Virus record (IMG/VR): IMGVR_UViG_2684622618_000028
Direction: 5' to 3' (one strand)
DNA from: a virus
Taxonomy: Duplodnaviria > Heunggongvirae > Uroviricota > Caudoviricetes
DNA: 4,895 nt
Both the position numbers and the translations under genes were made by a program. Positions 4,236 through 4,895 of the stretch are shown here, piece by piece. Under the pieces are notes generated by a model that searched no databases, was not told where the DNA came from, and saw only the letters and a list, made by a program, of their open reading frames with translations. How positions within the stretch are numbered: position 1 is the stretch's first letter; every line of letters begins with the position of its first letter.

Positions 4236-4545
4236 GAAAAACATCGCCGCACAGATGGTTAACTTTGACCGTGAGCAGATGCGTCGGATCGCCAACATCG
4301 ATAACCAGGACATGACGATATCGGTCTGGGTCTTTCCTGATACTGATATTTCAGATGTATCGCGTGAGTTAATTGCGGCAATTAAACAGGGGTATCTAAC
4401 AGTAAAAGCCGCCGGGGTATGGGCGGGGGGCATTGAAACACCTTCGGTGGAAACTCCATCGGAAGGCTCTAAATTTTTTGGTTTTGATATGGATAACGAA
4501 TTCATCAGTGGTTTTGATGTAGGGGCATGGGGAGTATTACTCTGA
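4236..4545 (+). CDS. chimeric ORF: lambda P N-terminus (about 21 codons) fused in frame to the C-terminal ~83 aa of an unrelated protein (possibly tail/baseplate module); 5' end lost in gap
   Basis: Right after the gap the sequence GAAAAACATCGCCGCACAGATGGTTAACTTTGACCGTGAGCAGATGCGTCGGATCGCCAACA equals the lambda P 5' end as I recall it ([20 protein letters not shown]); identity ends at about 4297. The frame stays open to the TGA at 4543-4545, which overlaps the ATG of the next gene (TGATG). Confidence 0.5.
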
Positions 4546-4895
4546 TGGCGAAAAATGACTTTAAAGCGTTTGCAACTGATCGAAATGCCAATGTTATGTC
4601 GCAGGAGGAATGGGAAGCGTTGCCTGCGCTTATATCCGGATTTACAGCAGGGAAAGCATCCAGTGCGCAAGTCAATAAGGTTATTCGGCAGGCCAGCTTT
4701 ATTGCTGCAGCTCTGGCCCAGTTTGTAAGTGATAAAACGCAACGGGATGTGCTTGATAATGGTGATCTGCCCGGTTTTGTTGAATTGCTGGGATCGGGGT
4801 TTGCTGTTGAATACCTGAGCCGCAAGAATCCGTTTGGCGATATCAAATCGGACGGCACGGTGAAAACGGCTCTTCAAAACCTTGGTTTGGGAGAA
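4545..4895 (+). CDS. probable phage tail fibre protein, N-terminal part (continues past the window end)
   Basis: [120 protein letters not shown], start overlapping the upstream stop. It resembles the conserved N-terminal regions of enterobacterial myovirus-type tail-fibre proteins as I remember them; the family assignment needs a search. Confidence 0.5.

Follow-up and report, generated by a model that had tools for sequence, protein, structure and literature searches.

Positions 4236–4560 of the thrW prophage Sp1/CP-933H of Escherichia coli O157:H7 as a probable deletion scar joining the 5′ end of a lambda-type P gene to the 3′ end of a DUF2612 tail gene

The region at positions 4236–4560 of the window, by which we mean the whole 4,895-nt stretch of DNA that was analyzed (virus record IMGVR_UViG_2684622618_000028), is probably the right-hand deletion scar of Sp1/CP-933H, a prophage integrated at the tRNA gene thrW, produced by a single internal deletion in a mosaic ancestor and with consequences for transcription from pR. 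Window positions 1–4185 are 100% identical to positions 4550–8734 of locus L001 of strain Sakai (NC_002695.2), and window positions 4236–4895 are 100% identical to positions 9001–9660 of the same locus. The last 660 nt of the window are also present at 100% identity in E. coli O157:H7 EDL933 and in many further O157:H7 genomes. The Sakai annotation describes “prophage Sp1, lambda-like phage” at 300042–310627 (10,586 bp) at thrW and lists int (ECs_0271), O (ECs_0277), and P (ECs_0279) as pseudogenes. Sp1 of Sakai corresponds to CP-933H of EDL933, and the window is its left half. The element and its pseudogenes were known beforehand, from an annotation of 2001 and a characterization of 2009. Sp1 has been described as a highly degraded lambdoid prophage without excision or replication, the early genes of which respond to mitomycin C (PMC2669165). 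Added here are the base-level breakpoints, the DUF2612 origin of the 3′ part of “P”, and the microhomology status of the joins, which are unstated in the available parts of the published accounts.

The features that bear on the argument are the following (window coordinates).

115–190, plus strand: thrW, tRNA-Thr (CGT), from the Sakai annotation.
205–1123, minus strand: int′ (pseudogene intD, ECs_0271), an integrase gene of the SfV/SfIV/phi458 type that integrates at thrW; 5′-truncated, with about 63 N-terminal codons gone.
1124–1183, minus strand: N′ remnant, the first 20 codons of a lambda-type N, matching lambda 35301–35360 exactly.
2072–2785, minus strand: cI, an intact lambda-type repressor gene (ECs_0274), with four amino-acid differences from lambda cI.
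2796–3498, plus strand: OR operators, pR, cro, nutR, and cII; the products of cro and cII show no amino-acid difference from lambda.
3531–4185, plus strand: lambda-type O with ori (pseudogene ECs_0277), frameshifted; its last 266 nt lie under the run of N.
4186–4235: run of 50 N; in complete genomes, 266 nt comprising the 3′ end of O and the “AT” of the P start codon.
4236–4297, plus strand: P′ remnant, nt 3–64 of a lambda-type P; 21 codons and 1 nt when the two masked bases are included.
4298–4545, plus strand: 3′ remnant of a DUF2612 baseplate-wedge gene (phrog_587), nt 434–681, comprising two bases of codon 145, residues 146–226, and the stop codon.
4545–4895, plus strand: 5′ part of a tail-fibre gene (ECs_0280), which is 795 nt long in Sakai and extends past the end of the window.

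Sp1 has the features of a defective lambdoid prophage. It is flanked at a tRNA gene by att repeats, a 47-bp core formed by the 3′ part of thrW (window 145–191) being repeated at its right end (L001 15280–15326), and a truncated int adjoins thrW. The cI, cro, and cII genes are intact; the genes for lysis, packaging, head, and tail shaft are gone. Nothing lies between P′ and the DUF2612 remnant, and Sp1 measures 10.6 kb, compared with 37–45 kb for SfV and phi458. The suggestion in the first-pass annotation that an element retaining its immunity had lost everything from P through the nin region, Q, lysis, head, and most tail genes is thus supported. Next to attR, L001 15018–15146 has 87.6% identity to phi458 and 81.8% identity to lambda 27328–27464, which lies on the b-region side of attP, and the right attachment arm of Sp1 is therefore lambdoid by descent too. 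A P4-like prophage, Sp2, lies directly beyond the right att repeat, giving two elements in tandem at thrW. The early region of Sp1 (L001 5472–9262) is split by an insertion of the IS3-family element IS1203 in strains 9000 and EC4115, and the decay of Sp1 is therefore still under way in the lineage.

At the right junction, window 4236–4297 (62 nt) is identical to nt 3–64 of lambda P, as first noted, and also shows 100% identity to P of phages 21 and H-19B (E = 1e-22). The match is not due to chance because these 62 nt end a 2.4-kb block with 97.4% identity to lambda 37223–39645. As far as position 4297, P′ does not differ from the P genes of lambda, phi458, the 2014C-3599 prophage, and the thrW prophage of O55:H7. 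P′ is a remnant of P by descent: all 64 of 64 nt are identical, and its ATG overlaps the stop codon of O (TTATGA) as in lambda. Lambda P has about 233 residues, and its C-terminal part binds the host DnaB helicase. Only 21 of 233 codons are left in Sp1, and the 103-aa ORF into which they run gives no match to a P family in Pfam, which sets it apart from a functional lambda P.

The breakpoint had been placed at about 4297, and this was borne out, since identity to P stops there and other sequence begins at 4298. The region 4236–4895 matched lambda P up to 4297 and, after that, DUF2612 and tail-fibre sequence of the 606R2 type: from 4298 onward, identity to phage vB_EcoM-606R2 is 97.7% over 598 nt, and the first 98 nt are 100% identical to the prophage of O145:H28 strain RM12581. 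Window 4298–4545 is 97.7–100% identical, at the nucleotide level, to intact 681-nt genes in vB_EcoM-606R2, O145:H28 RM12581, and KTa008. The resulting ORF has 103 codons (P codons 1–21, a hybrid ATC codon, and 81 DUF2612 codons; stop at 4543–4545) and is annotated in Sakai as pseudogene ECs_0279. The earlier count of 83 codons of unrelated sequence was correct to within one codon; the “unrelated protein” turned out to be the leftover of a tail module beside its usual tail-fibre neighbor.

The intact DUF2612 protein matches PF11041 with an E value of 2.5e-47 (161.6 bits; Pfam) and belongs to phrog_587, annotated as “structural protein”. Its sequence weakly resembles baseplate wedge proteins of solved structure (7kh1 gp17, 5.9e-5; 9zd7 gp89, 1.6e-5; Pam3 gp23, 0.089), and in 606R2, RM12581, and KTa008 its 681-nt gene lies between a baseplate J/gp47 gene and the 795-nt tail-fibre gene that is also present in Sp1. 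Unlike these intact relatives, the fused ORF does not contain the whole DUF2612 domain; it scores 20.3 bits against PF11041, for which the cut-off is 23.5, covers only positions 135–177 of the 181 in the profile, and represents a 3′ fragment. The ATG of the tail-fibre gene at 4545 overlaps the stop codon of the fused ORF exactly as in the intact phages. The tail-fibre protein matches phrog_11303 (9e-65) and phrog_3100 (6.5e-78). None of four sequences (DUF2612 protein, fused ORF, tail-fibre protein, and a 129-aa ORF discussed below) gave a match in NCBIfam, and Pfam gave none for the last two. Farther to the right, 3′ of the tail-fibre gene, L001 10669–12127 is an invertible cassette that contains the pinE invertase gene, a second tail-fibre assembly gene, and an inverted C-terminal tail-fibre segment. 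This cassette is only 62–71% matched in some O157:H7 genomes, which suggests inversion or other rearrangement variants.

The sequences on both sides of each join were compared for microhomology. With the join marked by a slash, the P side reads ...GCCAACA/ACATGCC in four intact genes (those of lambda, phi458, and the O55:H7 USDA5905 and 2014C-3599 prophages), the DUF2612 side reads ...CAGATAG/TCGATAACC in four entries that represent three intact genes (606R2 twice, RM12581, and KTa008), and Sp1 reads ...GCCAACA/TCGATAACC. Across these eight parental sequences (four of P and four DUF2612 entries, 606R2 counted twice), 0 nt are shared at the right join, and because the parents have no base in common there, the join is blunt and without homology. 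The pentamer ACATG, which both sides have in common nearby, was considered as a crossover site and discarded, as it does not fit the product sequence. In a three-way comparison with phi458, a single nucleotide at the left join, the C at 1123, was found to be common to both parents. Neither join thus shows the several common bases of microhomology-mediated recombination, and the interiors of int and of the baseplate gene at the joins have no homology to N or P. Of the earlier proposal of illegitimate recombination at short homologies, the illegitimate character of the joins stands; the short homologies do not, the inspection having given 0 nt on the right and 1 nt on the left.

The left junction was confirmed as an integrase gene cut at window 1123 and joined to 60 nt of a lambda-type N. 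The int′ remnant is 98.6–99.5% identical at the nucleotide level to the int genes of SfIV, SfI, SfV, SfII, and phi458, with the alignment ending at 1123, and it matches Pfam Phage_integrase with an E value of 2.4e-47. N′ matches Pfam N36 (E = 3.1e-9) and retains the arginine-rich boxB-binding peptide. On the minus strand of window 1070–1183, the N′ codons run into int out of frame, and an overlapping ATG at 1179 opens a 324-codon ORF in frame with the truncated integrase; this ORF is labeled as an integrase, not as a pseudogene, in some RefSeq annotations. The symmetry of the two breakpoints, which had been called striking, is numerically true (60–61 nt into N, 64 nt into P) and has no demonstrated cause: no mechanism that would place both breakpoints about 60 nt into N and P was found.

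Between the two scars, the immunity switch looks functional and lambda-specific, judged from the sequence. The switch region was surveyed over window 2072–2860 and 1413–1473. The cI protein differs from lambda cI by T3A, K71N, R129K, and D139G; OR3, OR1, OL2, OL3, nutL, and nutR are exact lambda matches, and OR2 and OL1 each differ from lambda by one base. A pR-like element, TTGACT-17-GATAAT, lies at L001 7382–7410 (window 2833–2861). When aligned with lambda O, the Sp1 gene shows one 23-nt insertion and 15 substitutions. The insertion is a tandem duplication of an ori iteron plus spacer (window 3923–3968; L001 8472–8517), which gives five iterons instead of four and shifts the reading frame of O to leave a 202-codon ORF; this frameshift is predicted to disable replication independently of the truncation of P. 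In the position of rexA/rexB of lambda lies the 129-codon ORF mentioned above (ECs_0273; window 1555–1944, minus strand), which matches only positions 1–108 of the 246 of phrog_5783 (unknown function). The 2014C-3599 prophage has at the rexAB position an annotated NYN-domain gene and a partial PIN-domain gene. The 129-codon ORF may be a truncated accessory gene expressed in the lysogen.

Relatives of the lambda-like block show what the truncated genes once were. An intact lambda-like prophage of strain 2014C-3599 carries the Sp1 immunity variant at 98.6% identity, with homology that ends exactly at both junctions, and N and P of Sp1 are therefore truncated normal genes, not alleles. Phage phi458 combines in one intact genome the Sp1-type int (99.4%), the 5′ end of N, and cII-O-P (98.2%), and in its coordinates the left deletion corresponds to 980–8408, about 7.4 kb. 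Intact thrW prophages were compared as well. A complete one in YC21-F17 matches Sp1 in int (99.4%) and in the right arm between the end of pin and attR (97.7%). In O55:H7, of the ancestral lineage, the complete lambdoid prophage at thrW of strain USDA5905, which has full N, O, and P (L010 12222–40101, L011), is a different one: it carries another integrase allele (76% nucleotide identity over the aligning part), another immunity region and repressor, and a right arm with the type III effector genes NleG, EspW, and NleB, followed by the same P4-like element. As a direct precursor of Sp1 it was discarded, since its integrase, immunity region, and right arm differ, which implies that between O55:H7 and O157:H7 the element at thrW was replaced by another or diverged strongly.

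Among 5,426 complete E. coli genomes, the right junction was found in full in 204 (201-nt probe) and the left junction in 215 (200-nt probe); all remaining genomes matched one half of a probe only. The listed junction-bearing examples are O157:H7 or unlabeled genomes of 5.4–5.6 Mb. In contrast to natural mosaic boundaries, both boundaries are intragenic and gene-destroying, and the right junction as such occurs only in the 204 O157-type genomes. The invariance of the scar is silent on selection because O157:H7 is clonal.

These observations are best accommodated, in our judgment, by deletion within one ancestral prophage, which we consider the probable course of events. The ancestor would have been a temperate mosaic phage in which an integrase of the SfV type was combined with an early region of the lambda type (N, cI, cro, cII, O, and P) and a contractile-tail late region of the DUF2612 type. 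One non-homologous, blunt event would have joined nt 64 of P to nt 434 of the DUF2612 gene, with loss of about 27 kb comprising the rest of P, ren, the nin region, Q, the lysis, packaging, and head genes, and nearly the whole tail. This size is a proxy, namely the distance from the second replication gene to the breakpoint in RM12581 (about 27 kb). A separate deletion of about 7.4 kb would have joined int at about codon 64 to codon 20 of N. Replication and N-dependent killing functions would thereby have been lost, with the cI/cro switch kept intact. A single internal deletion is the simplest explanation because a hybrid of this kind exists: the O145:H28 RM12581 prophage combines a lambdoid early region (cI, cro, cII, nin, Q) with a DUF2612-type tail, although it has a P22-type replication module instead of O/P and is located at sbcB-dacD. 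That all parts belonged to a single ancestor is deduced from such existing mosaics, because the closest relatives of the outer arms, phi458 and YC21-F17, have lambda-type, non-contractile tails. Counting against this model, no prophage was found that by itself carries both a lambda-type P and a DUF2612 tail, and among the relatives examined none unites the Sp1 integrase, lambda-type O/P, and a DUF2612 tail. The exact ancestor was not among them, as phi458, YC21-F17, KTa008, 606R2, and RM12581 each match in part; KTa008 and 606R2 have the fitting tail, with replication genes unrelated to those of Sp1 and a different insertion site. Selection for an immunity-only remnant, in which killing functions and replication are lost and immunity is kept, had been raised as a reason for such an outcome; it is plausible on general lambda knowledge and not on the grounds of this sequence.

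The serious rival, which we regard as possible although clearly less probable, is that two genomes contributed: a resident lambdoid thrW prophage that resembled phi458 or the YC21-F17 prophage and had a lambda-type tail, and a 606R2-like phage or prophage with a contractile tail of the DUF2612 type. The product could have arisen by a homologous crossover in the tail-fibre/chaperone/pin cassette combined with an illegitimate P-DUF2612 join, and a deletion across two tandem thrW prophages would yield the same product. The lambda-type tails of the relatives of both the integrase arm and the right arm point in this direction. So does the usual setting of the DUF2612-stf-tfa-pin block in E. coli, which is typically found in 606R2-type prophages with unrelated replication genes, at yfhL-yfhH. 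Moreover, likeness to 606R2 begins at the junction and reaches into pin (L001 9063–10934 and 11444–11833), and likeness to the right arm of YC21-F17 begins exactly at the end of pin, at L001 12127. The pin/tail-fibre cassette of phi458 could provide the homology for the crossover, and the tandem arrangement of Sp1 and Sp2 is a precedent at thrW of O157. Against this origin, it requires two crossovers or an unobserved tandem intermediate, whereas one deletion suffices given the existing lambdoid/DUF2612 hybrids; in addition, the integrase family also occurs on phages with contractile tails, such as SfV.

Insertion of a lambda immunity fragment, from N′ to P′, into an unrelated prophage that supplied int and the tail fibre, or replacement of the middle of such a prophage by the fragment, is very unlikely. 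It would account for a lambda-like block that ends on either side, about 60 nt into N and into P, at a non-homologous join, and both int (98.7%) and the tail-fibre gene from window 4818 (96.2%) resemble the SfV family. Yet the viable phage phi458 has this int, N, and cII-O-P as natural neighbors, and because it carries both, int and the early region need not have separate sources; the insertion that had been suggested as one explanation is not needed. Integration of a 3-kb linear piece by two blunt illegitimate joins would also be far less likely than two deletions, and neither end carries a target-site duplication or another mobile-element signature. A lambda-dv-like or recombineering-type origin of the N′-to-P′ block was likewise discarded, given the truncated P and the lack of homology at the flanks.

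A working gene, be it a natural allele of a replication gene or one for a functional fusion protein, is a highly improbable reading of the fused ORF. The fusion is in frame, keeps the P start codon, and is invariant in about 200 genomes, but an in-frame outcome is the chance expectation in one of three cases and carries no weight alone, and the invariance reflects the clonality of O157:H7. Apart from the P codons that are left, with no P family domain detected, the ORF consists of the last third of a baseplate protein, below the Pfam cut-off; the downstream sequence is the 3′ third of a DUF2612 gene that is whole in intact phages, not part of a natural P allele. The upstream O is frameshifted, RefSeq flags the ORF as a pseudogene, and the element is described as non-replicating (PMC2669165). 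The fused ORF is best read as a pseudogene, a by-product of the join.

An assembly artefact, suggested by the 50-N run at 4186–4235 and by O-P sequence that recurs in other O157 prophages (three to four places per genome), is refuted by more than 200 complete genomes, including Sakai and EDL933, in which the two sides lie 266 nt apart and collinear with lambda O, and by the junction itself, which lies in unbroken sequence 62 nt past the right end of the N run. Resolved across the gap, the hidden 266 nt are ordinary lambda-type O sequence, collinear with the 3′ end of lambda O and inside the 97.4% lambda-like block, and a gap hiding several kilobases, which had been a concern, is excluded because they sit within this continuous homologous block.

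As a likely consequence of the join, the cassette of tail-fibre, chaperone, and invertase genes now follows pR at a distance of about 1.7 kb, and SOS cleavage of cI should switch the cassette on. No intrinsic terminator was predicted on the plus strand from pR to the tail-fibre genes, in a scan that would miss the Rho-dependent tR1. With pR present and no intrinsic terminator predicted, de-repression of pR should therefore transcribe cro-cII-O′-P′::DUF2612′ into the tail-fibre and chaperone genes; we infer this read-through, bearing in mind that tR1 is Rho-dependent and N is truncated. In a study of EDL933, exposure to antibiotics raised expression of Z0314 and Z0316, two tail-fibre genes of CP-933H, with logFC values of 6.0 and 5.3, which places them among the genes most strongly induced (PMC4048457). 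Read-through from pR fits the published induction by SOS and by antibiotics, the correspondence of Z0314/Z0316 to ECs_0280 and its neighbors being presumed only. The published induction of Sp1 genes by DNA damage, including the tail-fibre genes, was called unexplained by its authors in an element without replication or excision. The deletion would give a simple explanation, namely read-through from a lambda-type pR that appears to be still functional.

A wider role is doubtful. We think it unlikely that the scar is other than neutral, with a cassette under cI/pR control, SOS-made fibres donated in trans to co-resident phages released at the same moment so that their host range is altered, and cI conferring immunity to phages of lambda immunity. 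The analysis has little significance beyond housekeeping, in that the breakpoints of a known remnant and the 3′ part of its “P pseudogene” have been identified, and it offers a clean example of prophage decay through blunt, homology-free joins.

Among known systems, Sp1/CP-933H is the same element, with no sequence difference from the window. The e14 element of E. coli K-12 is a comparable defective lambdoid remnant in which a repressor/cro switch and a tail-fibre, chaperone, and pin cassette were kept and morphogenesis was mostly lost; gene names of the e14 type (tfaE, tfaP, stfP, and pinE) are present in K-12 genomes. It differs from Sp1 in its integration site, its ymfK/ymfT-type immunity, and presumably its breakpoints.

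A second parallel is provided by the engineered cryptic lambda fragments used to study “replicative killing”, in which N-cI857-cro-cII-O-P is left in the chromosome and cells survive induction only if O, P, or ori has ceased to function. Sp1 resembles survivors of this kind in that O is frameshifted and P truncated. It differs in being natural, in lacking N, and in having a tail-fibre cassette downstream, and a link between its deletion and survival would be by analogy only.

The Shigella serotype-converting phages SfV, SfI, SfII, and SfIV share with Sp1 the thrW site and an integrase gene with 98.6–99.5% nucleotide identity. In phages of the SfV family, too, the early region is lambdoid and the tail contractile, and their tail-fibre gene is 96.2% identical to that of Sp1 from window 4818 onward. 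Unlike Sp1, they have other immunity and replication genes, a Mu gp48-like gene instead of a DUF2612 gene upstream of the tail fibre, and gtr genes at the right end.
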